Source: a bacterium
Lineage (GTDB): Bacteria; UBA8248; JACPRG01; G963555815
Direction of reading: 5' to 3'
NCBI GenBank assembly: GCA_965249615.1
Contig: CBDFMI010000006.1
Location: forward strand, 444,132-508,131
DNA length: 64,000 nucleotides
Shown: in pieces, positions 5,770 to 46,666 of the stretch
How the letters are laid out: every line of letters starts with the position of its first letter
How positions within the stretch are numbered: the first letter of the stretch is position 1
The notes under the pieces: generated by a model
Database searches by the model: none
Seen by the model: only the letters and a program-made list of their open reading frames with translations
Told to the model about the DNA's origin: nothing
Translations under genes and position numbers: made by a program

Positions 5770-6882
5770 ATGGAGATCACGTTAAGTGTCATTAAGGCGG
5801 ACATCGGGAGTGTGGGCGGGCATATCCGCCCGAGTAAACGACTGCTTGAAACGGTGCGGGACTTTGTCTCGCGAGAAGGGGCCTCCCTCGCCATCGATAG
5901 CTATGTGGGAGCGACAGGAGACGACATCGGCATCCTCCTAACCCATACCCGAGGGGCGAGCGATGAGGCCATCCATAAACTCGGCTGGGATGCCTTCAAG
6001 GCCGGGACGGAAGTGGCCAAATCCCAGGGGCTCTACGGCGCGGGTCAGGATCTTCTGAAGGACGCCTTCTCGGGGAATATCCGGGGGCTGGGGCCCGCTG
6101 TTGCAGAGATGACCTTCGAGGAGCGCCCCAATGAGCCCTTCCTCTTCTTTCAGGCCGACAAGACAGACCCGGGGGCCTATAACCTCCCGGTCTATCTTGC
6201 CTTTTTGGACCCCATGTGGTGTCCGGGCCTGATACTGAGCCCGAAGATGAAGGAGGGCTTTAAATTTACCATCATGGACGTGGCTTCCTCCGAGGAGGAC
6301 CGCGTCATTGAGCTCAACGCCCCAGAGGAACTCTACGACATCGCCACCCTCCTTCGGGACAACTCGCGGTTCGTGGTGGAGTCGGTTCACTCCCGCATGG
6401 ATGGGGAGATAGCTGCGGTAGTGAGCACATCGCGACTCCACAACATCGCGGGGACCTATACCGGAAAAGATGACCCTGTCATGCTGATCCGCTCCCAGGG
6501 CGGTTTCCCCGCCACAGGGGAGCTCCTTGCTCCCTACAGCATCGGCCACTTGGTGGCAGGCTGCATGCGGGGAAGCCACAACATGCCCCTCATGCCGGTT
6601 CACTACGGGAGCCCCATGTCCTTCTTCGACGGGCCTCCGGGCGTGAGCTGCCTTGCCTTCTGCGTTCACGAGGGGCGCCTCACTGAGCCGGCCGACGCCT
6701 TCGATCACCCGTTCTGGGACCACATCCGGGTGGAGATCTCTAAGAAGGCCGTCGAGGTCCGCCGCCAGGGCTTCTCAGGCCCCGCCATGCTGGGGATGAA
6801 TGAGCTGGAGTACACAGGGGTCGTGGAACGCCTGTCCCAGCTGGAGGAGCGATTCAGCGTGCGGGAAGAAGTGAAGGCCTGA
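5770..6882 (+). CDS. fbp: Bifunctional fructose-1,6-bisphosphate aldolase/phosphatase (archaeal-type class V FBPase)
   Basis: ATG at 5770 preceded by GGGAGGAG. N-terminus MEITLSVIKADIGSVGGH matches the hallmark FBP aldolase/phosphatase N-terminus (MK.T.SVIKAD.GG); length 371 aa. Confidence 0.85.
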   Translation: MEITLSVIKADIGSVGGHIRPSKRLLETVRDFVSREGASLAIDSYVGATGDDIGILLTHTRGASDEAIHKLGWDAFKAGTEVAKSQGLYGAGQDLLKDAFSGNIRGLGPAVAEMTFEERPNEPFLFFQADKTDPGAYNLPVYLAFLDPMWCPGLILSPKMKEGFKFTIMDVASSEEDRVIELNAPEELYDIATLLRDNSRFVVESVHSRMDGEIAAVVSTSRLHNIAGTYTGKDDPVMLIRSQGGFPATGELLAPYSIGHLVAGCMRGSHNMPLMPVHYGSPMSFFDGPPGVSCLAFCVHEGRLTEPADAFDHPFWDHIRVEISKKAVEVRRQGFSGPAMLGMNELEYTGVVERLSQLEERFSVREEVKA

Positions 6883-7673: not shown

Positions 7674-9794
7674 GTGGACGGTTTACAGTCAGATACTGGG
7701 AGCCGCTGGTCTCTTCTGTGGCGGGATTGTTTGGGGTGGCTATCGGTCTCAGCAGGTCTGGGTGTATTTGAATCGATCCTTCTGGCCTTCCAAAGACCTG
7801 AGATCAATCCCTTCGCAGTGATCGATCTTTTGGATCTCCTGAGCTCCGCCATCGTTTTAAATTCCTTGATGATTCTCCCAGTCTCAGCGGGCCATTTCCT
7901 CCTGTGTTTTCGCCTTTTGGGAGATCGCGACCGTCGGGCGCAGGGTCGAAACACGTTTTTATTCCACCTCGTTGTGTTCCTCGCGTTGGTGTTCACCATT
8001 TTTATTGGCCGAAGACTCATCTTCACGATCCCTGCAGCCATCGTGATCGCCACGGCCCTTTGGTTCGGACTGAAATATACACCCAGGCGGCTGGCCCGTA
8101 TGTTCGGGCTGGGTGTCACCGTTTTCCTGCTGGCCTTTCTTTCCTACGAATTTGCACGGCCATTTTATCCCCTAAAAAATCTCCGCGAGGTCCGGAACGA
8201 AGACAGCGCACTTCCAAATGTGCTCCTGGTGCTTGTGGATACGTTGCGGGCGGATCGGCTCTCCACATACGGCTATTCCAGGGAGACGTCCCCGTTCATT
8301 TCAAAGCTCGCGGGAGAGGGGGCGAAATTTACGAATTTCTATGCGAACGCGAGTTGGACTCCGCCGGCGACGGCAACGATTTTGACCGGCGTATTTCCCT
8401 CAATCCATGGAATAAACGGAACGTCGTTCCAAAAGAAGGCTCCGGTTAAGACGCTTTGTGAGGTTCTGCGCGGACACGGATACAACACGGCTGCGTTTGT
8501 CGCGAACCCATGGATCGGTGAGCGCAGTGGATTACTCGAAGGATGCGACTATCACAGCCCGATGTGGAACCCCTTTAGGCGAAACCACCAGAGACGTGAT
8601 GTCCCAGATCCATCCGCACCCTCTTTCCTGATCCTCGCCAGCGAGCCGATGCTGGAAAACATTTTCGTCTGGAGAAAGTTTGTTTTTTTGCCACGCATTT
8701 TCGTTTGGAATAGATTTGTTTCTTTGTCCGATAGGGTTGTAACCAGCCTTTTCATAATTGACAGGAAGAAGAGCCACCTCCTCCGCGGGGCATTTCGCCT
8801 AATTCAGGAGGTTGATGGAGATGGGAATGATAACCGAGAGGAGATAGAAAATCGCATTCCTCGTGCGGATGAGTTTACACATGGAGTCTTGAACTACGTC
8901 GATTATGTGGCATCGGTGGAAAACCATGATGGCCAAAGGACGAAATTCTTTATCTATCTGCACTATGTAGAACCGCATAGCCCGTATCAGTCACCTGGGC
9001 GCTATGGTCGCCTGTTTGATCCCCACTATCCGGATGAGCGTGTGACTGAGTATCCGGATCCGTCTGAAAATGGGACCACGCCGGAATTGCCGGATGCGCA
9101 GCTGCACAACCTTCAAGCACAATACGACGGAGAGACCCGTTACTTTGATGACAACTTCCAGTTCCTTTTCTCGAATCTAGAGGAAAGGGGGTTCGTGGAT
9201 AACACGTTGATTGTCTTTGTTTCTGACCATGGAGAGGAATTCTACGAGCATCGGGGATTTGGGCATGGGGGAACAGTCTTTGAGGAAGTGCTCAGAGTGC
9301 CTCCCATTTTATGGTACCCCGGCAGCTTGCCCGGCGGACTTGAGGTGGAGGAGCCGGGATCCCAGGTGGATCTAATGCCAACGATTATGGAGGTCCTCGG
9401 TCTTCCGGGGCCCGGGGATTTCCAGGGAAGAAGCTTGTTGCCGCTCATATATGGGGAGGAGAGCGGGGCGGCCATCTATGGAGAAAGCTCACGCGAGCCC
9501 CCTGGCCGCGAGCTTAGTTCTCATCGGTTTTTAGTTCATGGCCGATATAAATTTATCAACCAGGAAAAACCTGAGACAGAGCATGAAAAATTTCTTTTTG
9601 ACCTTCAGTTGGATCCGAACGAGCAAGAAAACATCTACGGCTCTGAAAAAAAGATAGCGGAAGAAATGGAGTTGCTACTGGAAAAATTCGTCACATTGGT
9701 CGAGAATGACCCCCGGTACTCTGAAAACCCAGAGGCCATCGGAGTTGACCCGGAACTGGAGGAGCGTCTGAAGGCTCTCGGATACGTTGAATGA
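7674..9794 (+). CDS. Membrane-anchored sulfatase-family (alkaline phosphatase superfamily; LtaS/MdoB/EptA-like) transferase/hydrolase, paralog 1
   Basis: N-terminal ~5 TM helices, then LVLVDTLRADRLSTYGYSRETSPFISKLAGEGAKFTNFYANASWTPPATATILTGVFP (PF00884-like metal-binding/nucleophile region) and DHGEEFYEHRGFGHG. Ends ...ERLKALGYVE. Confidence 0.75.
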   Translation: MDGLQSDTGSRWSLLWRDCLGWLSVSAGLGVFESILLAFQRPEINPFAVIDLLDLLSSAIVLNSLMILPVSAGHFLLCFRLLGDRDRRAQGRNTFLFHLVVFLALVFTIFIGRRLIFTIPAAIVIATALWFGLKYTPRRLARMFGLGVTVFLLAFLSYEFARPFYPLKNLREVRNEDSALPNVLLVLVDTLRADRLSTYGYSRETSPFISKLAGEGAKFTNFYANASWTPPATATILTGVFPSIHGINGTSFQKKAPVKTLCEVLRGHGYNTAAFVANPWIGERSGLLEGCDYHSPMWNPFRRNHQRRDVPDPSAPSFLILASEPMLENIFVWRKFVFLPRIFVWNRFVSLSDRVVTSLFIIDRKKSHLLRGAFRLIQEVDGDGNDNREEIENRIPRADEFTHGVLNYVDYVASVENHDGQRTKFFIYLHYVEPHSPYQSPGRYGRLFDPHYPDERVTEYPDPSENGTTPELPDAQLHNLQAQYDGETRYFDDNFQFLFSNLEERGFVDNTLIVFVSDHGEEFYEHRGFGHGGTVFEEVLRVPPILWYPGSLPGGLEVEEPGSQVDLMPTIMEVLGLPGPGDFQGRSLLPLIYGEESGAAIYGESSREPPGRELSSHRFLVHGRYKFINQEKPETEHEKFLFDLQLDPNEQENIYGSEKKIAEEMELLLEKFVTLVENDPRYSENPEAIGVDPELEERLKALGYVE

Positions 9795-9831
9795 AGGTTA
9801 AAGGGCTCGACTCGGACTTGGTGCACACAGC

Positions 9832-12039
9832 ATGAACCGCTGGTCCTTGCTTCGGCGAGATTTTTTGGGATGGCTGGCGGTTTCGGCAGGTCTGGGCGTA
9901 TTTGAATCGGTCTTGCTGGCCTTCCAAAGACCTAAGATCAACCCCTTCGCGGCCATCGATCTGGTCGCTCTTTCGATTTCTGCCGTCCTTTTCAACTCCC
10001 TGATGGTTCTACCCGTTTCACTCGGTCATTTTTTCTTGTATTGGCGGTTTTCTGGAGGCCACGACCATCAGGCGCAGGGCCGAAACGTCTTTTTATTTCA
10101 CCTCGTCGTGTTCCTCGCGGTTGCGTTCATCATTTTTATTGGCCGAAGGCTCATCCTTACGGTTCCTGCAACTATTCTGATGTCCGCGGGCCTTTGGTTC
10201 GGCCTTAGATATCTTTCGACAAGGATTGTTCGGGCATTTTCAGTAGGTGCCGGTATTTTCCTCTTGGCACTTTTTTCGTATGAGTCCCTCCGCTTGCCGC
10301 TCTATATCACAGACCCCGATTATGAACTATGGAAGTCGGAAGTTACGTTATGGGAGGAGGAAGACCCGCGATGTGAGACGCACCTGCGCTTCTCTACTCT
10401 CAACGGCGACCTGGGGTCCCTCGATTCCAGGAACTGTTCCAATTACTACCTGGAGAAGTTCAGGCAGGTAGAAGCGGAGCACCAATCACTGCCGAACGTT
10501 ATTCTGGTTCTTGTCGATACGCTTCGCCCCGATCACCTGTCCACATACGGCTATCATCGAGAGACATCGCCTTTTATTTCGAAGCTGGCGGCGGAGGGGC
10601 TAAAATTTACCAATTTCTATGCGAACGGTGCGTGGACCCCGCCGACGACTTCAACGCTTCTAACCGGCGTTTTTCCCGCAATCCATGGGATATATGAGCC
10701 TGGCGGGCAAAAGAGGGAGACAGTCAAAGTCATTTCTGAGACTCTCCGTGACTACGGCTATAACACAGCCGCCTTTATCGCGAATCCACTGATTACGAAA
10801 AGCACTGGGTTGCTGGACGGATATGATTATTTCTACCGAAAACCCAGGCCGCCGGTGTCGCGGCCGTCGTTGAGGCTCGCGAGCTTCCCCAGTCCGGAGA
10901 ACCTCCTCATATGGGTGAAGTTTCTGTCTCTGTCAGATAAGGTGGTCCAGGCGTTTCGGGGTTTTGATGGGAAGAAAAACGATCTTTTAGTTCAGATATT
11001 TCCCTTCAGCCGTGAATTAGAGCCAGAAAGACAGGAAAGGATACGGGAGGAATTCCGTTTCCCCCCCGCGGAAGTCGACATGGATAAAGAACTCGACTTC
11101 CCCCGGGCGAATGAAATGGCGAACGCGGTGCTGAATTACGTGGATTACGCCTTGGCAGGTCCTGACTTCGACGTTGTGCAAACGAAATTCTTCCTCTTTC
11201 TCCACGACATGGGTCCCCACGATCCTTATAAGTTGCCCACGCCATATGACGTCCTCTTCGACCCTGGGCGCCAGGATAGGCCGGAGGCCGAAGGGGCAGT
11301 CCGGTTTTTGGATGAGTCGCCGCCTGCGTCAGTTCGGGAGAGATTGGCCCATGATTTGCCGCTGTATGACGGAGCAATCCGTTTCTTCGATGATAATTTT
11401 CAGGTGCTCTTTTCGGAACTCAAGGAACGGGGGCTTTTGGACAATACCCTAGTGATCTTGCTGGCAGATCATGGGGAAGAATTCTATGAGCACGGTGAAA
11501 TTGGACATGGGGAGAAGGTCTTTGAGGAAATTGTCAGGATCCCCCTTGTCTTGTGGTATCCAGGGGAATTGCCCTAAGGGGTCGAGGTGAAGGAGTTCGG
11601 GTCGCAGGTGGATATAATACCCACGATCGTGGATGTTCTGGATCTGCCAGTACCAGAGGGGTTGCAGGGAAAGAGCCTCTTGCCCGCGATATCCGGGAGG
11701 GGGCTAGAGAGGGTTGTGTACGGAGAAAACTTGCGTGGTTCGCAGGATTTATCGTCGGGAGATATGTTGCGATTTTTGATCCATGGCCGATATAAACTCA
11801 TCACCATGGGGACACCTAAGACAGTGCGGGAAAAATTGCTCTTTGACCTCCAGTCGGACCCGCATGAGAAAAACAACATCTGCGGGTCTGAGAAAAAGAT
11901 AGCGGAAGAAATGGAATCGCTGCTAGAGGATTTCATCGCATTGGTGAAGAAGGACCCTAGGTATTCTGAAGACCTAGAGGCCGTTGAAGTGGACCCGGAA
12001 CTGCAGAAGCGTCTAAAGGCTCTCGGATACATTGAATGA
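9832..12039 (+). pseudogene. Tandem paralog 2 of the membrane-anchored sulfatase-family protein, interrupted by an in-frame TAA (11575-11577). N-part 9832-11577 (581 aa); C-part restarts at GTG 11587, 6 nt after a GGGG RBS-like run, and runs to 12039.
   Basis: Collinear with paralog 1 over its entire length. Paralog 1 reads WYPGSLPGGLEVEEPGSQVD where paralog 2 reads WYPGELP*GVEVKEFGSQVD; same frame before and after the stop. Ends ...KRLKALGYIE. Confidence 0.6.
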
Positions 12040-12129
12040 GGGTTAAAAAGTTCGCGTCGATCCTGGTGAAAAAGCAGGCTCACCTTTGGCCCGCGATCGG
12101 GTTTTTAGTTTGAGAGGACGTGGGTAAGA

Positions 12130-13806
12130 ATGTCCATCTCCAAGGTCGCCCTCCTGGGTCTTGACGGTGCCACCTTCTACCTCCTTCGCCCCTGGATGGA
12201 GGATGGAACGCTCCCCAATCTTGCGAACCTCCAAAAACGGGGAGCCTCTGGGGTCCTTGCCTCCACCGTTCCACCGGTGACACCGACGGCCTGGTCCACG
12301 TGCATCACGGGGGTAAACCCGGGAAAGCACGGGATATTCGATTTTCGAGATTCTCCCCTCCGTCATCCCGACCGCCCCCTTCTGAGTCTATCCTCTATCC
12401 GCGCCCCCCGGCTCTGGCAGCTCCTGAATGGGGTCGGGAAAAAGACCATCATCCTCAATGTCCCCATGACTTATCCACCTGAGGCGGTGGACGGGTGCAT
12501 GGTCTCGGGGATGATGACACCGGGGCCGGAGGCGAACTACACTTATCCCCTGGAACTCAAGGCGGAGATCCGTCGGGAGATCGGAGAGTACCTGCCGGAT
12601 ATCGACCTGCCCAAGTACGACGCCGAGCGTTATGAGGATGCCCTGGCATACCTGGACTTGATACGGAAAAGTTTTTCCCAGCGGGAAAAACTTTTCTTCC
12701 ACCTCATGGAGAACCGGCCCTGGGATTTCTTCATGGGGGTTTTCATCTTGCCCGACCGGCTCCAACACGTCTTCTGGAAATATCTGGACCCTGAGGCCGG
12801 GCTCTACGGGACCGAGATCGCCCAGCGGCTCCGAGGCTCGGTCATTGACTGCTATCGTCTGATGGATGATTTTATCGGGCGCCTCGTGGAGCGGCTTTCC
12901 TCTGATACCCTCCTTCTTATCATGTCGGACCACGGTTTTGGACCCACCCAGGCCTGGATCAACGTGAGCACCTGGCTGGAGCAGCAGGGTCTCCTCAAGA
13001 TGAGGGGCCAGATGGCCCTGCAGCGACGCCTCTTGTACCATGCTGTGGGGCTGAACGAGGTGGGCTGGCTAAAACGCCTTATCCCGCAGTCCCTTCAGGC
13101 CTTCGCCCGAAAACGGGTGCGTCAGACCAAGTCCGCCTTTCGGACCGACGTTCAGGTCACCCTGGACTGGGATCGGACCCAGGCCTTTTTTCCCAGCATT
13201 CCGGCTCAAGGGATCTACATCAATGTGGAGCGGGACGGAGCGGGGATCGTCCCCCCGGGGGAGGCCTACGAGGCCCTGCGCGCTCGGCTTCGCGATTCGT
13301 TGCTGGCCCTGAAGGACCCGGCGACAGGGGAACGGATCGTGGACGCGGTGCAGTATCGAGAAGAGGTCTACCACGGGCCCGAAACCCCCTACGCCCCGGA
13401 CCTGTTCTTCGTCGCCCGAAATTACAGCTACCTGGGCCGGCCGATGTTTGGGGGCCGAGAGGTCATCCGGTCGCGCGTCCAGGTGCCAAACGGCTTTCAC
13501 CGCCCCGACGGGATCTTCATGGCTCATGGACCTCACGTGGCCTCGGGCCGGGCGGTCACTGGCTCCCACATCGCTGACATCACCCCCACCATCCTCTATA
13601 GTCTCGGCCTCCCCGTCCCAAAAGAGATGGACGGAAAGCCTTTGTCGGAGATCTTTGAGGCGGACTTTCGGCCCGAGAAGAAGGGCCAAGAGGTGAGCGC
13701 TACTGAAAGTCCACAGCCGCCTGAGAGGACTCCCTCTGAGGCTTATCGTCCCGAGGAGGCCTCCGCCATCGAGAAACGCCTTCGGGCCCTGGGGTATGAG
13801 GACTGA
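12130..13806 (+). CDS. Alkaline phosphatase family protein (type I phosphodiesterase/nucleotide pyrophosphatase-like, PF01663-like), AP-1
   Basis: LGLDGATFYLLRPW...STVPPVTPTAWSTCITGVNPGKHGIFDF aligns to the NPP KTFPNHYS.VTG nucleophile-Thr motif; MSDHGFG metal-binding motif. Ends ...EKRLRALGYED. Confidence 0.75.
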   Translation: MSISKVALLGLDGATFYLLRPWMEDGTLPNLANLQKRGASGVLASTVPPVTPTAWSTCITGVNPGKHGIFDFRDSPLRHPDRPLLSLSSIRAPRLWQLLNGVGKKTIILNVPMTYPPEAVDGCMVSGMMTPGPEANYTYPLELKAEIRREIGEYLPDIDLPKYDAERYEDALAYLDLIRKSFSQREKLFFHLMENRPWDFFMGVFILPDRLQHVFWKYLDPEAGLYGTEIAQRLRGSVIDCYRLMDDFIGRLVERLSSDTLLLIMSDHGFGPTQAWINVSTWLEQQGLLKMRGQMALQRRLLYHAVGLNEVGWLKRLIPQSLQAFARKRVRQTKSAFRTDVQVTLDWDRTQAFFPSIPAQGIYINVERDGAGIVPPGEAYEALRARLRDSLLALKDPATGERIVDAVQYREEVYHGPETPYAPDLFFVARNYSYLGRPMFGGREVIRSRVQVPNGFHRPDGIFMAHGPHVASGRAVTGSHIADITPTILYSLGLPVPKEMDGKPLSEIFEADFRPEKKGQEVSATESPQPPERTPSEAYRPEEASAIEKRLRALGYED

Positions 13807-13807
13807 G

Positions 13808-14878
13808 ATGGCAGGTCTGATGACGAAAGTCTCCCATGCCCTTCGAGGGGGTTGGGGGACCCTTTTGAAGGTCGGGGTGAGTGGACTGCTCATCCTTGTC
13901 CTCATTTGGCAGGTGGATTTCGATCGGCTTTGGGTCGTCGTCCGGGATATGTCCCCCGCCTGGCTCCTCCTGGCGCTCTTCTTCAAGTCGGGAGGGGTAT
14001 TCTCGAGCATCCTTCGGTGGCGAGTGCTTCTGAAGGGACAGGACCTCGCCGTCCCTTTAAAAGTCCTCACCTCCTCCTTTCTCGAAGGCCGTTTCTTCGG
14101 CACCTTCACGCCGAGCACCATCGGCCTTGACGCCTATCGAACGTATGACCTGGCCAAGTATTCCGGCCGAACAGCGGCCTCGGTTTCAGTCACATTGGTG
14201 GATAAGGTGATCGGGCTGTTCTCTCTCTCCTTTCTCGTGGCGGTCACCTCATTTGCCGGCGCCCGGTTTGTTGGAGGGCAAGGGGTCTTCTCCCTTCTCC
14301 TCGTCTTCTGTGTCCCCCTCTCCCTGTCCCTGATCTTTCTCCTTTTTCCGGGGCTCCTTGGCCGACTCGTCGACATCAGGAGGTGGAAATCAGGAGGATG
14401 GGCGGAGAAGATGGGCCGTTTCGTCGAAACCGTCACCGTCTATCGCCACCACCGGATCCTCATTGTTCAGGCGGTCGGGCTCGCTATCTTGGTCCACCTT
14501 GGGACCACGCTCATGTATTACGGGACGGCCCTTTCGGTGCAAGCCCCGGTCAGCCCCTTGGACATCCTCTTCGTTGGGCCCCTGATGATCACGGCGACGG
14601 TCATCCCTCTTTCTGTGGCCGGGATCGGGGTCCGTGAGGGGACCTTTGTCTTCTTCCTCACTCGGGTGGGGATCGAGGCGGAGGCCGCCATCCTTCTCGC
14701 CTTTCTCGGGTTCCTCGTAGGCGAGGTCATCAGCCTTTTCGGAGGCTTCATCTTCCTGTTGCGCTCCCACGCGTATCATCGGCGTGAGGGGGGGGTCGCC
14801 GGGGCCGCGGAAAGCGGCCTGGGCAAAGCCGGGGGTGAGGAAGAGGCCGTGGGGACAAAGAAAGAGATTGGCTCTTGA
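13808..14878 (+). CDS. Flippase-like / lysylphosphatidylglycerol-synthase-TM-region family membrane protein (UPF0104). Alternative start ATG 13796, which would overlap the AP-1 stop.
   Basis: About 8 TM helices; N-terminal KVGVSGLLILVLIWQVDFDRLW...LALFFKSGGVFSSILRWRVLL pattern is characteristic of the TIGR00374/PF03706 family, often paired with glycosyltransferases. Confidence 0.5.
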   Translation: MAGLMTKVSHALRGGWGTLLKVGVSGLLILVLIWQVDFDRLWVVVRDMSPAWLLLALFFKSGGVFSSILRWRVLLKGQDLAVPLKVLTSSFLEGRFFGTFTPSTIGLDAYRTYDLAKYSGRTAASVSVTLVDKVIGLFSLSFLVAVTSFAGARFVGGQGVFSLLLVFCVPLSLSLIFLLFPGLLGRLVDIRRWKSGGWAEKMGRFVETVTVYRHHRILIVQAVGLAILVHLGTTLMYYGTALSVQAPVSPLDILFVGPLMITATVIPLSVAGIGVREGTFVFFLTRVGIEAEAAILLAFLGFLVGEVISLFGGFIFLLRSHAYHRREGGVAGAAESGLGKAGGEEEAVGTKKEIGS

Positions 14879-16551
14879 GACGCCTCCTCATCATCGGCGT
14901 CGACGCCGGCACCCTGGACCTCATCGAGCCGTGGGCCCGAGCGGGTGATCTCCCCCATCTGGCCCGTCTCCTCAGGGAGGGGGCCTATGGGCGAGTCCAG
15001 TCGACCCTCCCCCCCTCCACCTATCCCGCCTGGACCTCCTTCATGACCGGTCAGAACCCCGGGCGGCACGGTCTCGTGGACTTCACCTTGAGGGAGGGAG
15101 GGCGCTATGCCGTCAGATTCGCCAGCTCCCGAGACCGGCAAAGTGCTAGTTTGTGGGGGATCCTCAGTGAGGCCGGCCGAAGAGTCGCCGTCCTCGGCAT
15201 GCCCGCCACATACCCCCCTGAAGCCGTCAACGGCTGTATGGTCAGCGGATTCGACTCCCCCCTAGCATGGCGTCTCAACGAGAGCTTTTTTCATCCTCGA
15301 GGGCTCCACCGGGAGGTCATACAGGAGGCGGGACTCTTCCCGCTCTCGGCCTGCCGGGAGGATCGGATCGGAAAGGGCTGGCACGAGCGGGCCTATCGGG
15401 AGATCCTGAAATCACTGGAGCAAGAAACTCGCGTGGCGGAGTACCTCCTGGGCCGGGAAGCGTGGGATTGCTTCTGCGTCGTCTTCGGCCAGACAGATAC
15501 GGTGTGCCATCATTTCTGGAAATTCTTCGACCCATCCTCTCCCCGATATGACTCAGAGGGGGCGAGGCGCTTTGGAGACGCCATCCGTCAAGTCTATCGG
15601 CGTGTGGATTCAGCCATCGGTTCCCTGCTGCAAAAGGCGCCCGATGACGTCACGGTCCTCATCGTCTCGGACCACGGAGCGGGGGGGGCAGGAAACCAGA
15701 TTATTCATTTAAACGCTTGGCTGGCCGGGGAGGGCCATCTGACCTTTCGAAAGGGGGGGGTGGGCTACCGTGCCCTTTCAGCCCTGAAGACGCTGGGCCT
15801 CGGCTATCTCCCGAGGAGGGTTCAAGAACAGGTCTTTCGTGCGGGCGGGGGCAGGCTGGCAAATGGGCTAGAATCCCGCTTGCGTTTCGGCCAGATCGAA
15901 TGGGCGAAGACCCGGGTCTATTCCGAGGAGCTGGGTTATTTCCCCTCTCTTTGGATCAACCTTCGGGGGAGGGAGCCTCAGGGGACGGTGGAGCCCGGCA
16001 GGGAATATGAGGATCTGAGGGACGAGATCATCAGCCGCTTAGAGGTTCTCAGACACCCCGTCACGGGGAGGCGCCTCGTTGAGCGGGCCGTTCGGCGAGA
16101 GGAGGTTTATTGGGGCCCCTTTGTGGACCGGGTTCCTGACATTCTCCTGGAGCTCGCCCTCGACGAGGGCTATAGCTACTCCTGCCTTCGAAGTCCAGCC
16201 CGCTCCCAGGGCCCCTTCGTTCGCTCTCTCCAGAGAGCGGAGGGGGCCAGGGGCCAGGGGATGAACGGCTCACACCGACCAGAGGGGTTTTTCGTTCTCT
16301 CGGGTGAGGGGGTGCGCCCGGGGAAGTGCCGGTTCACCCCCCATCTCATGGACTTTGCCCCGACGCTTCTCGCCCTTTTGGGGATCACCCCTTCGGTGGG
16401 GATGGACGGTCGGGTCTTGGAAGAAGTCCTGAGCGTCCCTGAGCCTCATCCCGTCCCCGTCGCCGTGGCAGGGGAAGAGACGCCTTCGGCGGCCCAGGGG
16501 TGGGAAGGCACGGCCTTCCGGCGGCTTCGGGACCTTGGATACCTGGAATGA
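14875..16551 (+). CDS. Alkaline phosphatase family protein (type I phosphodiesterase/nucleotide pyrophosphatase-like), AP-2; TTG start overlapping the upstream stop
   Basis: IGVDAGTLDLIEPW...STLPPSTYPAWTSFMTGQNPGRHG...VSDHGAGGAG; paralogous to AP-1. Ends ...FRRLRDLGYLE. Confidence 0.72.
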   Translation: MRRLLIIGVDAGTLDLIEPWARAGDLPHLARLLREGAYGRVQSTLPPSTYPAWTSFMTGQNPGRHGLVDFTLREGGRYAVRFASSRDRQSASLWGILSEAGRRVAVLGMPATYPPEAVNGCMVSGFDSPLAWRLNESFFHPRGLHREVIQEAGLFPLSACREDRIGKGWHERAYREILKSLEQETRVAEYLLGREAWDCFCVVFGQTDTVCHHFWKFFDPSSPRYDSEGARRFGDAIRQVYRRVDSAIGSLLQKAPDDVTVLIVSDHGAGGAGNQIIHLNAWLAGEGHLTFRKGGVGYRALSALKTLGLGYLPRRVQEQVFRAGGGRLANGLESRLRFGQIEWAKTRVYSEELGYFPSLWINLRGREPQGTVEPGREYEDLRDEIISRLEVLRHPVTGRRLVERAVRREEVYWGPFVDRVPDILLELALDEGYSYSCLRSPARSQGPFVRSLQRAEGARGQGMNGSHRPEGFFVLSGEGVRPGKCRFTPHLMDFAPTLLALLGITPSVGMDGRVLEEVLSVPEPHPVPVAVAGEETPSAAQGWEGTAFRRLRDLGYLE

Positions 16552-17768
16552 GTGGAGAGAAAGGATCTCGTCGGAAGGTGGCCATGGTGGCCCCCTGTCC
16601 CTTCCCAAGCGTTCAGGGCTCCCAGATCCTGATCCAGGATCTGGCCGGGGGCCTCGAGAGGAGGGGACACGAGGTCCACGTGGTCACTTACCCCTTCGGG
16701 GGCTCCCGTCCGACCGCTTCCTTGCGGATCCACCGGGCTGCCTGTCCCCTTCGTTATGCCGTGGACCACCCGGGCCCTCATCTCTATAAACCTTTTCTGG
16801 ACCTCTTCGTCTTGAGAGAGCTCCTGCGGGTCATCCGCGGGGAGGGGATTGAGCTCCTCCACGCCCACAGCTATGAGGGGTTGCTCATCTCCCTGCTGGC
16901 CGGAAGGTGGACGGGCATTCCCGTCCTCTATCACAGCCACACCCTCCTCGAGGAGGAGCTCCCCACCTATTTTCGGGCCTCGTGGAAGCGCGCCCTGGCG
17001 CATTGGGTGGGCCGACTGCTGGACCGACAGCTTCCGCGTCGGTCAGACCATTGCATTGCCCTTTGTCAGAGAACCCTTGGGGCCTTTCGGGCCTTGGGGG
17101 TGGCGGCGGATCGCTCTTCCTGCATTCGTCCTCTGATCTTTTCCCCCGCCGATAAAACTCCTTCCAGGGTGGATGTAGAGCGCCATCCCTTCATCCTCTA
17201 TACGGGAAACCTCCACCCGTATCAGGATCTCAATCTCCTGATGGAGGGGTTCGCCGAGGTGGCCTCGAGGCTCTCAGAGGTCCGCCTGGTTATCGCCACC
17301 CATTCTGACCCTTCCCATTACGCCGCCCTGGCAAGGGCCCTGGGGCTGTCGGAGCGGGTCTCCTTTCGCGTGAAACCTCCCTTGGATGAAGAGTGGGGTT
17401 TGATGCGGAGGGCCGACCTCCTCGTCTGTCCGCGCCTTCGGTGCTCCGGCTACCCCATCAAGCTTTTGAACTACCTGGCGGCTGGAAGGCCCATCCTCGT
17501 CAGTGAGGGCTCGGCCGAGGGGATTCGCCATGGCGAGAACGGCTACGTTGTCTCTCGGCCTGAACCGAAAACCCTGGCGGAGGGGGCTATTCAAATCCTT
17601 CAGTCCCCCGCCTTGGCAAAACGGTTGGGCGAAGGGGCGGCCCGGACCTACCGGGAGGAGGTGGCGGAAGAGCGCTCCTTGTCGGCCATCGAGGCCATCT
17701 ACACGCAGTGTCTGGGGGAGGAGGGGAACGCGGCCCTCCTCGCCCACCCGAGGGAAATGGCCTCATGA
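16548..17768 (+). CDS. Glycosyltransferase family 4 (group 1)
   Basis: ATGA start/stop overlap with AP-2. N-terminal VAMVAPCPFPSVQGSQILIQDLAGGLERRGHEVHVVT (GT4 N-domain) and C-terminal ...CPRLRCSGYPIKLLNYLAAGRPILVSEGSAEGIRHGENGYVV (E-x7-E-like donor-binding region). Confidence 0.75.
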   Translation: MSGEKGSRRKVAMVAPCPFPSVQGSQILIQDLAGGLERRGHEVHVVTYPFGGSRPTASLRIHRAACPLRYAVDHPGPHLYKPFLDLFVLRELLRVIRGEGIELLHAHSYEGLLISLLAGRWTGIPVLYHSHTLLEEELPTYFRASWKRALAHWVGRLLDRQLPRRSDHCIALCQRTLGAFRALGVAADRSSCIRPLIFSPADKTPSRVDVERHPFILYTGNLHPYQDLNLLMEGFAEVASRLSEVRLVIATHSDPSHYAALARALGLSERVSFRVKPPLDEEWGLMRRADLLVCPRLRCSGYPIKLLNYLAAGRPILVSEGSAEGIRHGENGYVVSRPEPKTLAEGAIQILQSPALAKRLGEGAARTYREEVAEERSLSAIEAIYTQCLGEEGNAALLAHPREMAS

Positions 17769-19168
17769 CCAAGGTCTTGATCCTGGGCCTCGATTGCGCA
17801 GACCCTCGCCTGGTCTTTGACCGCTGGCGACAAGAACTTCCGAACCTCAGACAGCTCATGGAGGCCGGCGTCTGGGGCCCTCTTCAGAGCACCATCCCCC
17901 CCATCACGGTCCCAGCCTGGGCCTGCATGATGACGGGGCGGGACCCTGGAGAGCTAGGGATCTATGGGTTCCGAAACCGGACCTCCTATCAGTACGGGGC
18001 CCTGGGGATCACCAGCTCTCTCTCGGTCCAAGAGGAGACCCTGTGGGACATCCTGGGCCGCACCGGCCGGGAGGTGGTGGTCGTCGGGGTCCCTCCTTCA
18101 TATCCTGTGAAGCCCGTCCGGGGCAGCCTCATCTCCTGCTTTCTCACCCCGAACGCCGAGGTCCCTTTCACGCATCCCCCTGAGCTCAAGGAGGAGGTTC
18201 AGCGTCTTGCCGGCGGGTACCTGTTTGACGTGGAGGGATTCCGGACCGACGACAAGCCCCGGCTCCTCCAACAGATCCACGAGATGACAGAAAAACGCTT
18301 TAGGGTCCTGAAACACCTACTCACCCGAAAGCCGTGGGACTTTTTTATGTCGATGGAGATCGGGGTGGACCGCATGCATCACGGCTTTTGGAAATTTCAC
18401 GATGAGGGCCACATCAAGCACCCCCCGCAAAACCCCTATCAGCACGTCATTCTGGACTATTACCGCTATGTGGACAAGGAGATCGGTGAGCTGGTGGAGT
18501 CCGTCGACGAGGACACGGTCATCATCGTCCTCTCTGATCACGGGGTGAAGAGGATGGAGGGGGGGCTGTGCGTCAACGAATGGCTCATGAAGCAGAAATA
18601 TCTGAGCCTCTCCGCCTACCCCAAGGAGCTCACCTCCCTCAGCAAGCTCGATGTGAACTGGGACCGGACCATGGTCTGGGGAGAAGGGGGGTACTATGGC
18701 CGGATCTATCTCAACGTAAAGGGCCGGGAACCCCAGGGGGTCATCGCCCCAAATGACGTGGAGAAGATCCGGGCAGAGCTGAAACAGGGCATGGAAGAGC
18801 TTTCCGACGAATCAGGGCGCCCCCTCGGGACCCGCGTATTCTATCCCGAGGAGGTCTATCAGGAGGTCCGGAGGATCCCGCCCGATCTCATCGTCTATTT
18901 TGGAGACCTGGACTGGCGCTCTGTCGGGACCGTGGGCCATGGCTCGATCCACACCCGAGAGAATGACACGGGCCCTGACGACGCCAACCACGACACCCAC
19001 GGGATATTCATCATGGCGAAGAAGGCGGACCTCAAAGGGGGCGGGACCGGTCTGGGAACCCGCCTCGACGGTCTCAGCCTCTACGACGTGACCCCCACCG
19101 TCCTGGACCTCCTTGGCCTTCCCATCCCACCCTCGATGCACGGGCGAGTGATTTCTCCTAGAGCCTGA
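17765..19168 (+). CDS. Alkaline phosphatase family protein (type I phosphodiesterase/nucleotide pyrophosphatase-like), AP-3
   Basis: ATGA overlap with the GT4 stop. MTKVLILGLDCADP...STIPPITVPAWACMMTGRDPGELG...LSDHGV. Lacks the C-terminal LGY tag (ends ...HGRVISPRA). Confidence 0.75.
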   Translation: MTKVLILGLDCADPRLVFDRWRQELPNLRQLMEAGVWGPLQSTIPPITVPAWACMMTGRDPGELGIYGFRNRTSYQYGALGITSSLSVQEETLWDILGRTGREVVVVGVPPSYPVKPVRGSLISCFLTPNAEVPFTHPPELKEEVQRLAGGYLFDVEGFRTDDKPRLLQQIHEMTEKRFRVLKHLLTRKPWDFFMSMEIGVDRMHHGFWKFHDEGHIKHPPQNPYQHVILDYYRYVDKEIGELVESVDEDTVIIVLSDHGVKRMEGGLCVNEWLMKQKYLSLSAYPKELTSLSKLDVNWDRTMVWGEGGYYGRIYLNVKGREPQGVIAPNDVEKIRAELKQGMEELSDESGRPLGTRVFYPEEVYQEVRRIPPDLIVYFGDLDWRSVGTVGHGSIHTRENDTGPDDANHDTHGIFIMAKKADLKGGGTGLGTRLDGLSLYDVTPTVLDLLGLPIPPSMHGRVISPRA

Positions 19169-19202
19169 TCGGTCCGCCTGTCTGGCTGAAAGAACCGCCA
19201 GA

Positions 19203-19240
19203 AAAAGCTTGACGGGGAAAAATGGGTGTATATACTCGTT
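19203..19240 (+). promoter_or_regulatory. Sigma70-like promoter, copy A: AAAAGCTTGACGGGGAAAAATGGGTGTATATACTCGTT (TTGACG, 16-17 nt spacer, TATACT)
   Basis: Near-identical (about 34/39 nt) to the element at 35888-35930; sits about 65 nt upstream of the CDS at 19306. Confidence 0.55.
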
Positions 19241-19305
19241 GTATCGGAAGAGACTGAAGGAGACGGAATTTCAGTCCGAGAGCGGGGCCACGCAATGGAG
19301 CAGAA

Positions 19306-20034
19306 ATGGCCCAGGAGGGGGTGAACATGGGCGAGCTTTCTTCCACGGCGAAGCGTGCTGTCTCAGCCTACGGCGGGGCCGATCGCTGGCGAAACGCACG
19401 GGCCATCGAGGCTGTGGTCTCGGCCAACGGCTTGGGCTTCCGCTTGAAGTGGCGGCGTCCTGCCCCAAATGCGGACGTCCGGGTGGAGATAGCGGAACCG
19501 GTCGTCAGGATGGATCTCAAAGATAGCGAGGGGCACATCGGCGTGATGGACCGGGGAGACGTGAGGATTGAGACGTCTTCTGGTAAAGTCGTGGCCTCAC
19601 GGCCGAATCCAGAACACCTGTTTCCCTACGGGCGAAGGGCTTTTTGGTGGGATCGGCTCGACCAGATCTACTTCTCAGGGTACGCCTTGTGGAACTACAT
19701 GACGCTTCCGGCCCTGTTGCTCAGGGACGACATCCAATGGGAGGAGCTCAGAGAGGGGAGCCTTCAGGCGCGTTTTCCCAAACATCTTCCAACACATTGC
19801 GAGGTGCAGCAGTTTCATTTCGAGCCGGCCACAGGGCTCCTGCGCCAGCTCGACTACACGGCGGAGGCCTTCGGAAACTGGGCCAAGGCCGCGAACGTGG
19901 TTTTGGAGCACGGCGAATCGGAGGGGATTCCTTATCCTTCACTGCGTCGGGTTACCCCGCGCCGAGGGGACGGCAGCCCGCGCAAGGGGCCGCTCCTCGT
20001 CGGGATCGAATTCCATCGATTCCGGCTCGTCTAG
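19306..20034 (+). CDS. Hypothetical protein (242 aa), no recognised family
   Basis: ORF with coding-like composition, downstream of a strong promoter-like element; convergent with cysC. Confidence 0.4.
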   Translation: MAQEGVNMGELSSTAKRAVSAYGGADRWRNARAIEAVVSANGLGFRLKWRRPAPNADVRVEIAEPVVRMDLKDSEGHIGVMDRGDVRIETSSGKVVASRPNPEHLFPYGRRAFWWDRLDQIYFSGYALWNYMTLPALLLRDDIQWEELREGSLQARFPKHLPTHCEVQQFHFEPATGLLRQLDYTAEAFGNWAKAANVVLEHGESEGIPYPSLRRVTPRRGDGSPRKGPLLVGIEFHRFRLV

Positions 20035-20042
20035 TCCCCAAT

Positions 20043-20675
20043 CTAGTCGATATATCCCAAGCCCTTCAGTTTGGCCTGGATGGTCTGCTTCTCTTCCTCG
20101 GAATAGACGTAATCGGCGGGCTCGATGTAACCGAATTCTTCCAGCCGAGAGAGAATATGCGCGACAGATTCCTTAACCGACTCTTTGTCCGTCTCGACGG
20201 TTATCTCGGGGTTGAGGGGCTCTTCATAGGGGTCTGAGACCCCCGTAAAATTCTTAATCTCACCCTTAAAAGCTTTCGCGTACATCCCTTTCACGTCCCG
20301 TTCTGCGCAGACCTCAACAGGGCATTTGACGTAGAGCTCCACGAAGCGCCCCACCTCGGCCCTTACGGCGTCTCGGATGGCCCGGTAGGGGGCGATGACC
20401 GCCGCCATGTTGGGAACCCCGTTTCGGGTCAAGAGGTGACAGAGGTATCCCAGGCGAATGATGTGCTTATCGCGGTCCTCTTTGGAGAAGCCGAGGTCGG
20501 CGCTGAGATTGCGGCGCACTTCGTCGCCGTCGAAGACCTCGACGTTCGGAAAACCGCGCTCGTGAAGTTTCTCTCCGAGAAGAACGGCAATCGTGCTTTT
20601 CCCTGAGCAGGGAAGGCCTGTGAACCAGACCGTGAACCCTCTGGGTTTATCTTTGATCACTTTCTCTCTCCTCAA
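20043..20675 (-). CDS. cysC: Adenylylsulfate (APS) kinase with a C-terminal extension carrying the LGY tag
   Basis: RGFTVWFTGLPCSGKSTIA (P-loop), FDGDEVRRNL and the LTRNGV core of APS kinase. The C-terminus reads ...LSRLEEFGYIEPADYVYSEEEKQTIQAKLKGLGYID, i.e. two copies of an L..(F/L)GYI(E/D) element. TTG start overlaps the sat stop by 2 nt. Confidence 0.85.
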   Translation of the reverse strand: MRREKVIKDKPRGFTVWFTGLPCSGKSTIAVLLGEKLHERGFPNVEVFDGDEVRRNLSADLGFSKEDRDKHIIRLGYLCHLLTRNGVPNMAAVIAPYRAIRDAVRAEVGRFVELYVKCPVEVCAERDVKGMYAKAFKGEIKNFTGVSDPYEEPLNPEITVETDKESVKESVAHILSRLEEFGYIEPADYVYSEEEKQTIQAKLKGLGYID

Positions 20676-21850
20676 GAGCCGCCGTCAGAACCCTGTCCTG
20701 CCCGCTCGGCGTAAGCCTGGTGCAAGACCCGGGCGACTTCAGGCCGCATCACCTCCGGGGGTGGAAGCTCCCCGCGGTCTAAAATTTCCCTCACACGAGT
20801 TCCGCTCAGGAAGACGCGCTCTTTCTCCCCGTGGGGGCAGGTCTTGGCCGTTATCATGGCCTCACACCCACGGCAGTAGAAGGCGTGGTCGAAGAAGAGA
20901 GGGGTGATCCCGATCTCCGAGGCCTCGAACTCGTGGAAGATATGGTGGGCGTCATAGGAGCCGTAGTAAGACCCGACGCCGGCGTGGTCCCGGCCCACGA
21001 TGAAATGGGTACAGCCGTAGTTCTTTCGCACGATAGCGTGGAAGATGGCCTCCTTCGGCCCGGCGTAGCGCATGGCCGCCGGAAACACGGAGAGGACCGT
21101 CCGGTTCTTGGGAAAATAGCTCTCCAGGATCACCCTGTAGGAGGCCATCCGGAGGTCCGCCGCCAGGTCGCCCTCCTTGGTGGCCCCGACCAGGGGATGA
21201 AGTAGGAGGCCGTCCACACATTCTAGGGCGCACTTCTGAATGTACTCGTGGGCGCGATGAATGGGGTTTCGGGTCTGGAAGGCCACGACCGTCTTCCACC
21301 CCTTGAGCTGAAAGAGAAGGCGGGTCTCCTTGGGTTCCAGATGGAAGTTGGACCACTCGGTGGCGGCCCCTCTTCGAAGGAGTTTAATAGGCCCCCCGAT
21401 GAGGACAGGGCCTCGCTCGAAGACCTGGCGAACCCCGGGGTGGTCCGAATCTTTTGTCCCGAAGACCTGCTCCACCTCCCTCTCCTTGTCCGGCTTCCAC
21501 TGAGAGGTGACCCGAAGAAGCCCGGTCGTTTCCTTCCCGACCGTGAGGGTAATCTCGTCACCTATGGAAAGGGTCTGGGCCGTCTTCTCATCCACGCCGA
21601 GGACGATGGGAAGCGTCCAGGGAAGGCCCAAGGCGAGGCGCTGGTCTTCCACCACAGCCTGGTAGTCCTCCTCCTCCATGAATCCCCTTAGGGGGCTGTA
21701 GGCCCCCGTCGCGATGAGTTCGAGATCGGAATGCTCCTGGGCCGACAGGGCGATTTTCGGCAGCCCTTGGGCTTTTTTGTCCAAGGCGGGCCGATCCTCC
21801 TCCCGGACCATCCGGTCGACGAGGACCCCGCCGTGCGGTTTGATAGGCAC
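20672..21850 (-). CDS. sat: Sulfate adenylyltransferase (homo-oligomeric ATP sulfurylase)
   Basis: VVAFQTRNPIHRAHEYIQK contains both the QTRN and HRAH motifs; 392 aa; translationally coupled to cysC. Confidence 0.85.
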   Translation of the reverse strand: MPIKPHGGVLVDRMVREEDRPALDKKAQGLPKIALSAQEHSDLELIATGAYSPLRGFMEEEDYQAVVEDQRLALGLPWTLPIVLGVDEKTAQTLSIGDEITLTVGKETTGLLRVTSQWKPDKEREVEQVFGTKDSDHPGVRQVFERGPVLIGGPIKLLRRGAATEWSNFHLEPKETRLLFQLKGWKTVVAFQTRNPIHRAHEYIQKCALECVDGLLLHPLVGATKEGDLAADLRMASYRVILESYFPKNRTVLSVFPAAMRYAGPKEAIFHAIVRKNYGCTHFIVGRDHAGVGSYYGSYDAHHIFHEFEASEIGITPLFFDHAFYCRGCEAMITAKTCPHGEKERVFLSGTRVREILDRGELPPPEVMRPEVARVLHQAYAERAGQGSDGGS

Positions 21851-29566: not shown

Positions 29567-29579
29567 CTTGGAATCCCCT

Positions 29580-30662: not shown

Positions 30663-30701
30663 CTGTGTGCACCTTGCCTCCGCTAGGGGGGGTCGCTGAC
30701 C

Positions 30702-31826: not shown

Positions 31827-31830
31827 AGTC

Positions 31831-46664: not shown

Positions 46665-46666
46665 GG

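Follow-up and report, generated by a model that had tools for sequence, protein, structure and literature searches.

Linkage of sat and cysC to genes for alkaline phosphatase-fold enzymes that may belong to a PAPS-centered glycoconjugate-modification system

The DNA analyzed here is a 64-kb stretch of a bacterial contig (the window), and the region of interest within it, at 7674-21850, contains sat and cysC, the genes for ATP sulfurylase (Sat) and the kinase of adenosine 5'-phosphosulfate (APS), CysC. These are convergent to an operon that encodes three alkaline phosphatase-family (AP) enzymes, AP1, AP2 and AP3, together with a flippase-like membrane protein and a family 4 glycosyltransferase (GT4), and this operon is preceded by the genes of two sulfatase-fold paralogs, Sulf1 and Sulf2. 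On its upstream side this region is flanked by 7.6 kb of the window, and on its downstream side by 42 kb (Table 1). Comparison with related loci shows that two conserved units have been joined here: unit B, consisting of sat, cysC and AP3, and unit A, consisting of Sulf1/Sulf2, AP1, the flippase-like protein, AP2 and GT4. In such loci the supply of 3'-phosphoadenosine 5'-phosphosulfate (PAPS), namely Sat, CysC and often a phosphatase for 3'-phosphoadenosine 5'-phosphate (pAp), is co-inherited with enzymes that have the fold of nucleotide pyrophosphatase/phosphodiesterase (NPP) and with sugar or glycoconjugate genes. It is not co-inherited with genes of reductive assimilation or with a recognizable sulfotransferase. 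From sequence and gene context we tentatively prefer the reading that this is a PAPS-centered glycoconjugate-modification system, in which enzymes of the AP fold would be the users of PAPS.

The link of sat-cysC to the AP genes is not accidental, and it runs mainly through AP3. A scan of metagenomes with an AP3 alignment yielded 80 loci (51-58% identity; loci are designated by L or P numbers), and in 35 of these sat and/or cysC is found within 1.5 kb of AP3. If the comparison is confined to the 32 loci that have 2 kb or more of flanking sequence on each side, AP3 is linked to Sat or CysC in 16. The chance of finding a single-copy gene within 1.5 kb, by a rough estimate and not a calculation, is well below 1% for each locus. 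No fewer than six gene orders were observed, including sat-AP3-cysC, AP3-cysC-sat, cysC-sat-AP3, sat-AP3-PHP (PHP being a PHP-domain protein, described below), AP3-cysC alone, and fusions of Sat to CysC (Sat::CysC) followed by AP3. That the arrangements are so varied speaks for selection to keep AP3 linked to sat/cysC rather than for inherited synteny. Further, full-length Sat::AP3 fusions are encoded at L087 909-3698 (929 amino acids, aa) and at L100 4999-7590 (863 aa), and P0285 provides a third case. In these fusions an ATP sulfurylase at the N-terminus is joined in frame to an AP3-type enzyme at the C-terminus, and cysC comes next after the fusion gene of L100. AP3 also occurs with cysC but without sat, in L086, L095 and L126.

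The same association is seen from the side of CysC, which ends in a distinctive tail (the LGY tail, discussed below). Seven tailed CysC homologs were chosen without knowledge of their genomic context, three first and four later, and an AP3-like neighbor was present in six of the seven, so that the tailed CysC clade is the AP3-linked clade. In L084 (Nitrospinota) sat-cysC is convergent on an AP3 that is 69% identical to that of the window. L085 has the order sat-AP3-cysC, L086 (Syntrophobacterales) has AP3-DUF2061-cysC-AP, L168 has Sat-AP3-CysC-PHP and L169 contains an AP-AP3-CysC-AP cluster. The layout of the window is reproduced in L170, where nuoN-thyX…sat-cysC is convergent on AP3-GT4-x-AP-flippase and the CysC identity is 63%. 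In the remaining locus, L167, CysC has no AP neighbor. Composite loci, in which the two units are joined as they are in the window, were also encountered in several lineages: flippase…Sat::CysC-AP3-GHMP kinase-AP2-hexapeptide transferase-GT4 (L138), AP3-GHMP kinase-AP2-hexapeptide transferase-GT4 (L152), Sat-GT4-AP1-AP3-CysC-AP (L141), Sat-AP3-CysC-AP2 (L120) and Sulf-CysC-Sat-AP3-AP1 (L089).

Pfam scans found no Sulfotransfer_* or PAPS_reduct domain in 47 open reading frames (ORFs) of the window, which comprise every greedily called gene of at least 138 aa except three ORFs (26715-32622) in a nuo-like run, at the edge of which is a Proton_antipo_M gene. A search for motifs in all six frames of the complete window likewise revealed no sulfotransferase or PAPS reductase, the regular expression having matched out of frame only. 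The claim of the original prediction that the window lacks both enzymes was thus upheld, and neither cysH, for which it had proposed to look beyond the window, nor a sulfite reductase was found within the 64 kb. The PAPS-reductase motif was absent from every ORF of 163 related loci, and of the 141 neighbors found at 37 loci linked to Sat/CysC, no more than one matched any given family of Sulfotransfer_*, PAPS_reduct or NIR_SIR.

The genes that do recur beside AP3 are of a different kind. A PHP-domain protein is encoded in or adjoining sat-AP3-cysC operons at L117 2941-3795, L118 10281-11138, L168 7602-7988 and in five other loci. Its best matches are PDB entry 2yb1 (6e-37) and the model NF041577, "3',5'-nucleoside bisphosphate phosphatase" (212 bits, under the cutoff of 400), and it belongs with the PHP/COG0613 group, which includes pAp phosphatases. 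Since a PHP-type pAp phosphatase is frequent, chemistry that releases pAp is to be expected locally. Other recurrent neighbors of AP3 are a GHMP sugar kinase (best match HddA, under cutoff), a SIS isomerase, Polysacc_synt_2 and other epimerase/dehydratases, Wzz/BY-kinase, family 2 glycosyltransferases (GT2) and a hexapeptide acyltransferase. These sugar-pathway and exopolysaccharide genes point to a glycan acceptor. The HddA-like GHMP kinase is found directly downstream of AP3-cysC-sat or Sat::CysC-AP3, usually followed by a GmhA-like SIS isomerase (loci L139, L146, L157, L159, L127, L150, L128 and L138), and this kinase-isomerase pair points to a pathway for a heptose or sugar-phosphate acceptor.

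These arrangements may be compared with the known sulfation clusters, such as rhizobial nodP/nodQ/nodH, mycobacterial cysDNC with Stf, and cysDNC-cysQ-SULT of Bacteroides. As in those clusters, ATP sulfurylase and APS kinase are grouped with genes that build glycoconjugates, a pAp phosphatase is present in relatives, and there is no PAPS reductase nearby. Unlike them, the operon contains no P-loop enzyme of the Sulfotransfer_1/2/3 families, in whose place there are NPP-fold proteins of family PF01663, and a C-terminal peptide is common to CysC and several of the AP-fold enzymes. To our knowledge, P-loop sulfotransferases are credited with nearly all sulfation of lipids and glycans in bacteria. 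The kind of locus is known, as a cluster of sulfate activation with a transferase, and what is new is the AP family that stands where the transferase would be and the shared tag.

Unit A was examined by a scan with an AP2 alignment, using one genome per species, which gave 80 loci with at most 49% identity, all from metagenome-assembled genomes. The lineages represented are Binatia, Hydrogenedentota, Myxococcota, Chloroflexota, Nitrospirales, Glassbacteria and others. The window proteins were then searched against the six-frame ORFs of 83 loci. GT4 was found in 75 of the 83, mostly directly downstream of AP2, and a Sulf1-like gene in 49, mostly directly upstream; AP1 is present in 14, the flippase-like family (LPG_synthase_TM) in 11 and AP3 in 11. 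Thus a gene for a sulfatase-fold protein with transmembrane (TM) segments, followed by AP2 and GT4, forms a separate conserved core that is rarely near sat or cysC. AP2-type genes are common without sat/cysC, so that it is the tail and the composite loci that speak for any connection of AP1 and AP2 to PAPS. In two relatives cysC is part of such an operon, with the order AP1-flippase-Sulf-AP2-GT2-GT4-AP3-CysC in L004 (Glassbacteria) and CysC-AP1-Sulf-AP2 in L056, and Pfam scans found no sulfotransferase among the remaining genes of these operons. At the end of the L004 operon, a homolog of the RNA 2'-phosphotransferase Tpt1/KptA (14768-15415) overlaps the end of the tailed cysC. The original prediction had treated the AP, GT4 and flippase genes and sat-cysC as one linked module. 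For AP3 this view is borne out by the 35 linked loci, the fusions, the sampled CysC homologs and the composite loci, whereas the AP2/GT4/Sulf core mostly occurs without sat/cysC. The finding that had been named as contrary to it, AP genes in relatives without sat/cysC, was made in part, for AP1 and AP2, but the AP3 link is strong.

Table 1. Genes of the region 7674-21850 and their C-terminal LGY tails (window coordinates)
Feature	Position	Strand	Length	Assignment or sequence
Sulf1	7674-9794	+	706 aa	PF00884 at 1.4e-43 plus SGSH_C; LGY tail
Sulf1 LGY tail	9747-9791	+		…DPELEERLKALGYVE
Sulf2	9832-12039	+		tandem paralog of Sulf1; interrupted; LGY tail
Sulf2 LGY tail	11992-12036	+		…DPELQKRLKALGYIE
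AP1	12130-13806	+	558 aa	PF01663 at 5.1e-35; Thr nucleophile; LGY tail
AP1 LGY tail	13744-13803	+		YRPEEASAIEKRLRALGYED
Flippase-like protein	13796-14878	+	360 aa	LPG_synthase_TM/TIGR00374; polytopic membrane protein
AP2	14875-16551	+	558 aa	PF01663 at 5.6e-43; core partner of GT4; LGY tail
AP2 LGY tail	16510-16548	+		TAFRRLRDLGYLE
GT4	16548-17768	+	406 aa (from ATG at 16548)	GT-B glycosyltransferase
AP3	17765-19168	+	467 aa	PF01663; no tail; family is the conserved sat/cysC partner
Spacer ORF	19306-20034	+	242 aa	without family match
cysC	20043-20675	-	210 aa	APS kinase; PF01583 at 1.8e-55; LGY tail
CysC LGY tail	20046-20105	-	20 aa	YSEEEKQTIQAKLKGLGYID
sat	20672-21850	-	392 aa	ATP sulfurylase; PF01747 plus PUA_2

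Maps of the ORFs, domain scans and inspection of the overlaps confirmed the genes, domains and tight operon that had been described from the sequence. The 4-bp overlaps are TTGA at 14875, ATGA at 16548 and ATGA at 17765; sat and cysC also overlap by 4 bp (TTGA), and the AP1 and LPG_synthase_TM genes overlap by 11 bp. The closest relative, L001 (94% amino-acid identity, on a 2.13-Mb contig), shows the same layout. The spacer between AP3 and cysC (19169-20042) is variable, and in L001 the 242-aa ORF is replaced by a Trypsin_2 gene on the other strand. This ORF had no match in Pfam or NCBIfam and no homolog among 166 related loci, and it is probably outside the system. Pfam scans of the window identified TolQ/R, TonB_2, AsmA, CsgG and BamD-like genes, and because these are present the organism is considered to be diderm.

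The feature that connects the two units at the protein level is the LGY tail. Sulf1, Sulf2, AP1, AP2 and CysC all end in the motif …[RK]L[RK]xLGY[IVLE][ED], in the forms RLKALGYVE, RLKALGYIE, RLRALGYED, RLRDLGYLE and KLKGLGYID, and no further called ORF of the window ends in this way. The shared tag that had been noted originally is therefore real; it is confined to these five proteins of the window and recurs in relatives. An alignment of AP2 with 27 homologs and its AP1 paralog (29 sequences) shows R550, L551, G555 and Y556 to be invariant, although the preceding linker is variable. In an AlphaFold2 model of AP2 the confidence score (pLDDT) of residues 522-541 is under 50, and the helix that comes after them, at 543-553, is free and of low confidence. 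A disordered linker and a free helix imply a tethered peptide outside the fold, and on this model the AP2 tail would be separate from the body of the enzyme. Packing of the tail against its own catalytic domain was considered; in the model the low-confidence helix is free.

A census of the genome loci located the tail on 79 of 91 AP2 proteins, 11 of 16 AP1, 31 of 66 Sulf and four of four CysC, but on none of 11 AP3 and none of 82 GT4 proteins. In the AP3 loci it was also found on six of 82 AP3 orthologs and on a DUF2061 membrane protein. We considered whether the tail of CysC might be peculiar to this locus and rejected this, since it is clade-wide: the form Y[ST]xEEExxIKxRLKxLGY[IL] ends 99 of the 120 top CysC homologs, in a search that favors candidates sharing words with the query, tail included. 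Outside the families of the system hardly any of about 8,900 ORFs show the pattern. These distributions make the LGY tail a candidate for a system-specific address or docking motif. Tails were also seen at the ends of small proteins beside sat, AP3 and cysC that resemble ribbon-helix-helix (RHH) proteins of the CopG/Arc type, an assignment made by eye (L108 1786-2004, L086 6606-6926 and L111 12511-12756); this is a sign that a regulator may share its docking partner with CysC and the AP enzymes. A second group, proteins of 93-97 aa encoded between AP3 and the PHP phosphatase (L107 2088-2372, L117 2520-2801 and L165 3897-4190), resembles CysC in the first strand-helix and in the last helix, with no P-loop and with a full LGY tail. 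These may be non-catalytic remnants of CysC that have been kept for the tail.

Tethered C-terminal peptides are known from other systems, as cargo peptides of encapsulins and microcompartments and as the membrane-targeting helices of MinD and FtsA. The LGY tail has the appearance of a docking peptide, a short conserved helix that follows a variable disordered linker and is common to functionally related enzymes. It differs from the encapsulin, microcompartment, MinD and FtsA peptides in sequence, there are no shell genes nearby, and it differs from known docking peptides in that it is also carried by a DNA-binding RHH protein and by a predicted periplasmic domain. A membrane-targeting amphipathic helix like that of MinD was considered. 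Hydrophobic moments of the tails range from 0.14 to 0.40, against 0.27 for MinD, and are unremarkable; the tail is also present on RHH DNA-binding proteins. PAPS synthase 2 is reported to be physically coupled with SULT2A1 (PMC6016456).

The scores of AP1, AP2 and AP3 against PF01663 are 122, 148 and 174 bits, with a cutoff of 23. None of the three has a TM segment, and the N-terminus of each opens directly with the metal-binding Asp strand. This leaves no space for a signal peptide, and all three are predicted to be cytoplasmic. In AP3, D10, T48, D202, H206, D258, H259 and H409 are invariant in 41 sequences; in AP2 the invariant residues are D10, D208, H212, D266, H267 and H467, and T49 reaches a conservation of at least 90%. 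By comparison with NPP we take these to be the metal site and its nucleophile. On this assignment the AP enzymes retain the Asp/His ligands of a bimetallo site and the Thr nucleophile. The PF01663 enzymes fit an NPP-like three-dimensional fold, and this fold and its active site resemble those of the phosphoryl-transfer enzymes NPP, PhnA, PhoK and PafA. They differ from these enzymes (Xac NPP, ENPP4/6/7, PhnA, PhoK, PafA), with which they share only 13-19% identity, in being cytoplasmic and without signal peptide, in having extra inserted elements and several invariant Arg residues, and in an operon context of sulfate activation. The invariant Arg residues occur in YGFRNR and DRIHHGFW. An AP3 profile found no match among PDB sequences at an E value of 1e-6, and the names given to the AP homologs at source are all generic ("alkaline phosphatase family protein", "predicted AlkP superfamily phosphohydrolase/phosphomutase").

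The two Sulf proteins had been described as tandem LtaS-like transferases. Their architecture, TM segments plus an AP-superfamily domain, agrees with this description, but their family does not, and Sulf2 is interrupted. Against PF00884 they score 149.8 (Sulf1) and 147.5 bits (Sulf2), with a cutoff of 25, and the best PDB matches of their catalytic domains are S1 sulfatases, with choline sulfatase 7oz8 at 1.7e-30. The arylsulfatase model PRK13759 is matched at 5e-49, yet under its cutoff. The curated models for EptA, CptA, LtaS and YejM give 27-36 bits against cutoffs of 404-970 (score/cutoff: CptA 36/900, EptA 29/561, LtaS 27/970, YejM 27/825), so that membership in the LtaS/EptA families was rejected. 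The nucleophile column contains Thr in 57 of 58 members of the Sulf family (SWT[RK]PS); Sulf1 has T-P-P-A-T (WTPPAT) and Sulf2 has T-P-P-T-T. The formylglycine motif C/S-x-P-x-R was not found in the family, the Arg position being occupied by V, T, I or F in the 58 members, and in the absence of CxPxR we also rejected true formylglycine sulfatases. The Sulf family thus combines a sulfatase fold with a Thr nucleophile, lacks the motif Arg, and lies outside both the classical sulfatases and the LtaS/EptA families. The Sulf proteins resemble LtaS, OpgB/MdoB, EptA/MCR and CptA in their multi-TM N-terminus, in their Thr nucleophile and, if the predicted topology holds, in a sulfatase-fold domain outside the cytoplasm. 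They differ from these in being closer to S1 sulfatases and in having an SGSH_C-like C-terminal subdomain and the LGY tail.

The N-terminal hydrophobic region of Sulf1 is about 160 aa long, with five to six TM segments within residues 19-158. Since a positively charged loop precedes the last of these, the catalytic domain is predicted to face outward and to be extracytoplasmic. Sulf1 and Sulf2 share about 51% global identity. Sulf2 is an extra tandem copy, L001 having one Sulf gene, and an in-frame TAA at 11575-11577 splits its product into parts of 581 and 150 aa. The downstream part (11587-12039) has an intact frame of 150 aa and ends in the LGY tail, and the TAA could mark a young pseudogene, a sequencing error or a site of read-through. 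The middle third of Sulf2 has little DNA similarity to the single Sulf gene of L001. The GC content of both Sulf genes (7674-12039) is 0.52, compared with 0.60-0.64 in the flanking genes.

GT4 matches Glyco_transf_4 with 79.1 bits and Glycos_transf_1 with 72.8 bits, both over cutoff, and the closest solved structures are BshA and MshA (E values 1e-15 to 1e-8, partial coverage). MshA and BshA are UDP-GlcNAc transferases whose acceptors are inositol phosphate or malate. The likeness extends to the pairing of GT4 with a phosphoesterase-fold enzyme; the similarity is low, however, there are no thiol-pathway genes, and the context here is membrane-associated. The flippase-like protein scores 116.6 bits against a cutoff of 33.4 for PF03706 and 48.5 against 43.2 for TIGR00374. 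It corresponds to the TM domain only of MprF, in 360 aa, without the C-terminal aminoacyl-phosphatidylglycerol synthase domain. Sat matches NF003166 with 552.8 bits (cutoff 387) and CysC matches TIGR00455 with 211.7 bits (cutoff 138.7).

These elements can be combined in a scheme for the reading that we prefer. Sat and CysC would make PAPS for sulfation rather than for assimilation, and this PAPS would be consumed by AP3 and possibly by its tailed paralogs AP1 and AP2. The sulfuryl group would pass to an acceptor made by GT4 (a sugar, a sugar phosphate or a glycolipid), and the flippase-like protein would move the product to the outer face of the membrane, where Sulf1, with its predicted periplasmic domain, might trim it or add a phospho-substituent. 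The LGY helix would serve as a docking peptide that unites the PAPS producer, the tailed enzymes and, in relatives, the RHH regulator. A stronger version holds that the NPP-fold enzymes of the COG3379 type (AP3, possibly AP1 and AP2) are unrecognized PAPS- or APS-dependent sulfuryl transferases for sugars and glycolipids, which form with APS kinase, and in relatives the RHH regulator, a sulfation metabolon that is assembled by the LGY tail and would be widespread among uncultured Nitrospinota, soil bacteria of the Acidobacteriota type, Myxococcota, Binatia and others. Stated in this form the proposal is somewhat unlikely, and the chance that a categorically new class of sulfotransferases is hidden here, though substantial, is similar.

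Several observations weigh against the use of PAPS by the AP enzymes. We know of no precedent for native sulfuryl transfer by an NPP-type site with two Zn ions and a Thr, for which this reaction is known only as a weak promiscuous activity. About half of the AP3 orthologs have no sat or cysC nearby, and among the 83 AP2 loci cysC lies within 10 kb in only three lineages, that of the window, L004 and L056. The fusion partner of AP3 is Sat and not CysC, which favors a helper role. Canonical sulfotransferases are not wholly absent from the surroundings: a regular expression for the PAPS loop gave two candidates, in two loci, among 170 related loci, and in a further locus a Sulfotransfer_1/3 enzyme (L169 12508-13287, minus strand; 259 aa) is encoded 5 kb from the AP-AP3-CysC-AP cluster. 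It is the only canonical sulfotransferase annotated by Pfam near these clusters, and it is encoded on the opposite strand in a locus of lipopolysaccharide/polysaccharide type. Finally, the tail of Sulf1 is predicted to be periplasmic and the remaining tails cytoplasmic, and therefore one docking partner does not suit them all.

The main alternative, which we regard as somewhat less likely than the preferred reading, is that AP3 is an accessory hydrolase of sulfate activation, either a pyrophosphatase or a phosphatase/phosphodiesterase of pAp, PAPS or APS. The sat-AP3-cysC group would then be a mere cassette that supplies PAPS for assimilation or for canonical sulfotransferases elsewhere, and Sulf-AP1-AP2-GT4 would carry out phosphoryl chemistry unrelated to sulfate, such as dephosphorylation of a glycoside phosphate made by GT4 or the transfer of a phospho-alcohol. 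A pyrophosphatase would pull the unfavorable ATP sulfurylase reaction, and both the Sat::AP3 fusions and the order sat-AP3-cysC mirror the fusions of ATP sulfurylase to inorganic pyrophosphatase in stramenopiles and haptophytes (Patron et al. 2008, PMC2275785). In each instance a third enzyme is fused to, or shares an operon with, ATP sulfurylase and APS kinase. The partner here, however, is an NPP-like protein of the AP superfamily and not a soluble inorganic pyrophosphatase, and it is found as well in polysaccharide loci without sat. A hydrolytic role is also consistent with the resemblance of AP3 in fold and active site to phosphoryl-transfer enzymes, with the sulfotransferase near the L169 cluster and with the usual absence of sat/cysC from loci of the AP2-GT4 core. 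Further, the closest solved relatives of GT4 act on small phosphorylated or acidic acceptors, and many MshA/BshA-like synthases pair with a phosphatase. Other results do not sit easily with such a role. A PHP-type pAp phosphatase is often co-encoded, which would make AP3 redundant in that capacity and weakens the idea. The AP3-cysC pairs without sat are odd for a pyrophosphatase, and half of the AP3 orthologs occur in polysaccharide loci without sat/cysC. The tail common to CysC and AP1/AP2/Sulf is left unexplained, and neither cysH nor sulfite reductase recurs near the operons.

It is improbable that the locus is a phospho-substituent system of the LtaS/OpgB/EptA type with an sat-cysC that is merely assimilatory. 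In such a system phospholipids would donate phosphoglycerol or phosphoethanolamine, which Sulf would place on a glycan or glycolipid of the periplasm that had been built by GT4 and flipped by the LPG_synthase_TM protein. The architecture of Sulf1, with TM segments and a predicted extracytoplasmic AP-superfamily domain, would suit this purpose, as would the Thr nucleophile of 57 of the 58 family members, the diderm markers, the presence of the flippase-like protein and GT4 in the same operon, and the usual independence of the Sulf-AP2-GT4 core from sat/cysC. The low scores with the EptA, CptA, LtaS and YejM models and the closer similarity to S1 sulfatases argue to the contrary, and it would be left unexplained why there are three NPP-like enzymes in the cytoplasm, why AP3 is linked and fused to Sat or CysC, and why the tail is shared with CysC. 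Chemistry of the LtaS/OPG type may nevertheless describe the role of Sulf1, though unit B is not explained by it. Lastly, that the AP/GT4 operon lies beside sat-cysC by chance and that the similarity of the tags is a coincidence is extremely improbable; the units are convergent in the window with a variable spacer between them and most AP2 loci lack sat/cysC, but the comparative data refute chance adjacency, given the rate of linkage, the fusions and the many gene orders, together with the invariance of the tail in aligned AP2 homologs, its presence on most top CysC homologs and the inclusion of cysC in the AP operons of L004 and L056.

As a whole, these results tie a large and widely distributed family, annotated merely as "alkaline phosphatase family protein", to Sat and CysC by operon, by fusion and by tag. 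A literature search found no description of the sat-AP3-cysC association, of a function for COG3379 or of the LGY tail. If the AP enzymes do use PAPS, they would represent a new catalytic solution for sulfuryl transfer, and environmental bacteria would hold a hidden reservoir of sulfated envelope molecules. Were AP3 instead a dedicated pyrophosphatase or nucleotide phosphatase, sulfate activation in many phyla would have a third component that has not been described. The LGY tail is in addition a candidate for a new bacterial docking motif.

Some genes of the window outside this region were also noted. A ThyX of 472 aa with two tandem Thy1 domains is encoded at 22046-23464 on the minus strand; the double-Thy1 form is also present in L001 and L084, and in L170 it is called as two genes. 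At 5689-6882 a class V fructose-1,6-bisphosphate aldolase/phosphatase (FBPase_3) adjoins gcvH, a synteny that is kept in L001. The longest ORF for MreB (45980-47692, 570 aa) has an N-terminal extension of 240 aa before the MreB domain, and its start codon has probably been called too early. Close to MreB, a pentapeptide-repeat protein of 688 aa is encoded at 38231-40297.

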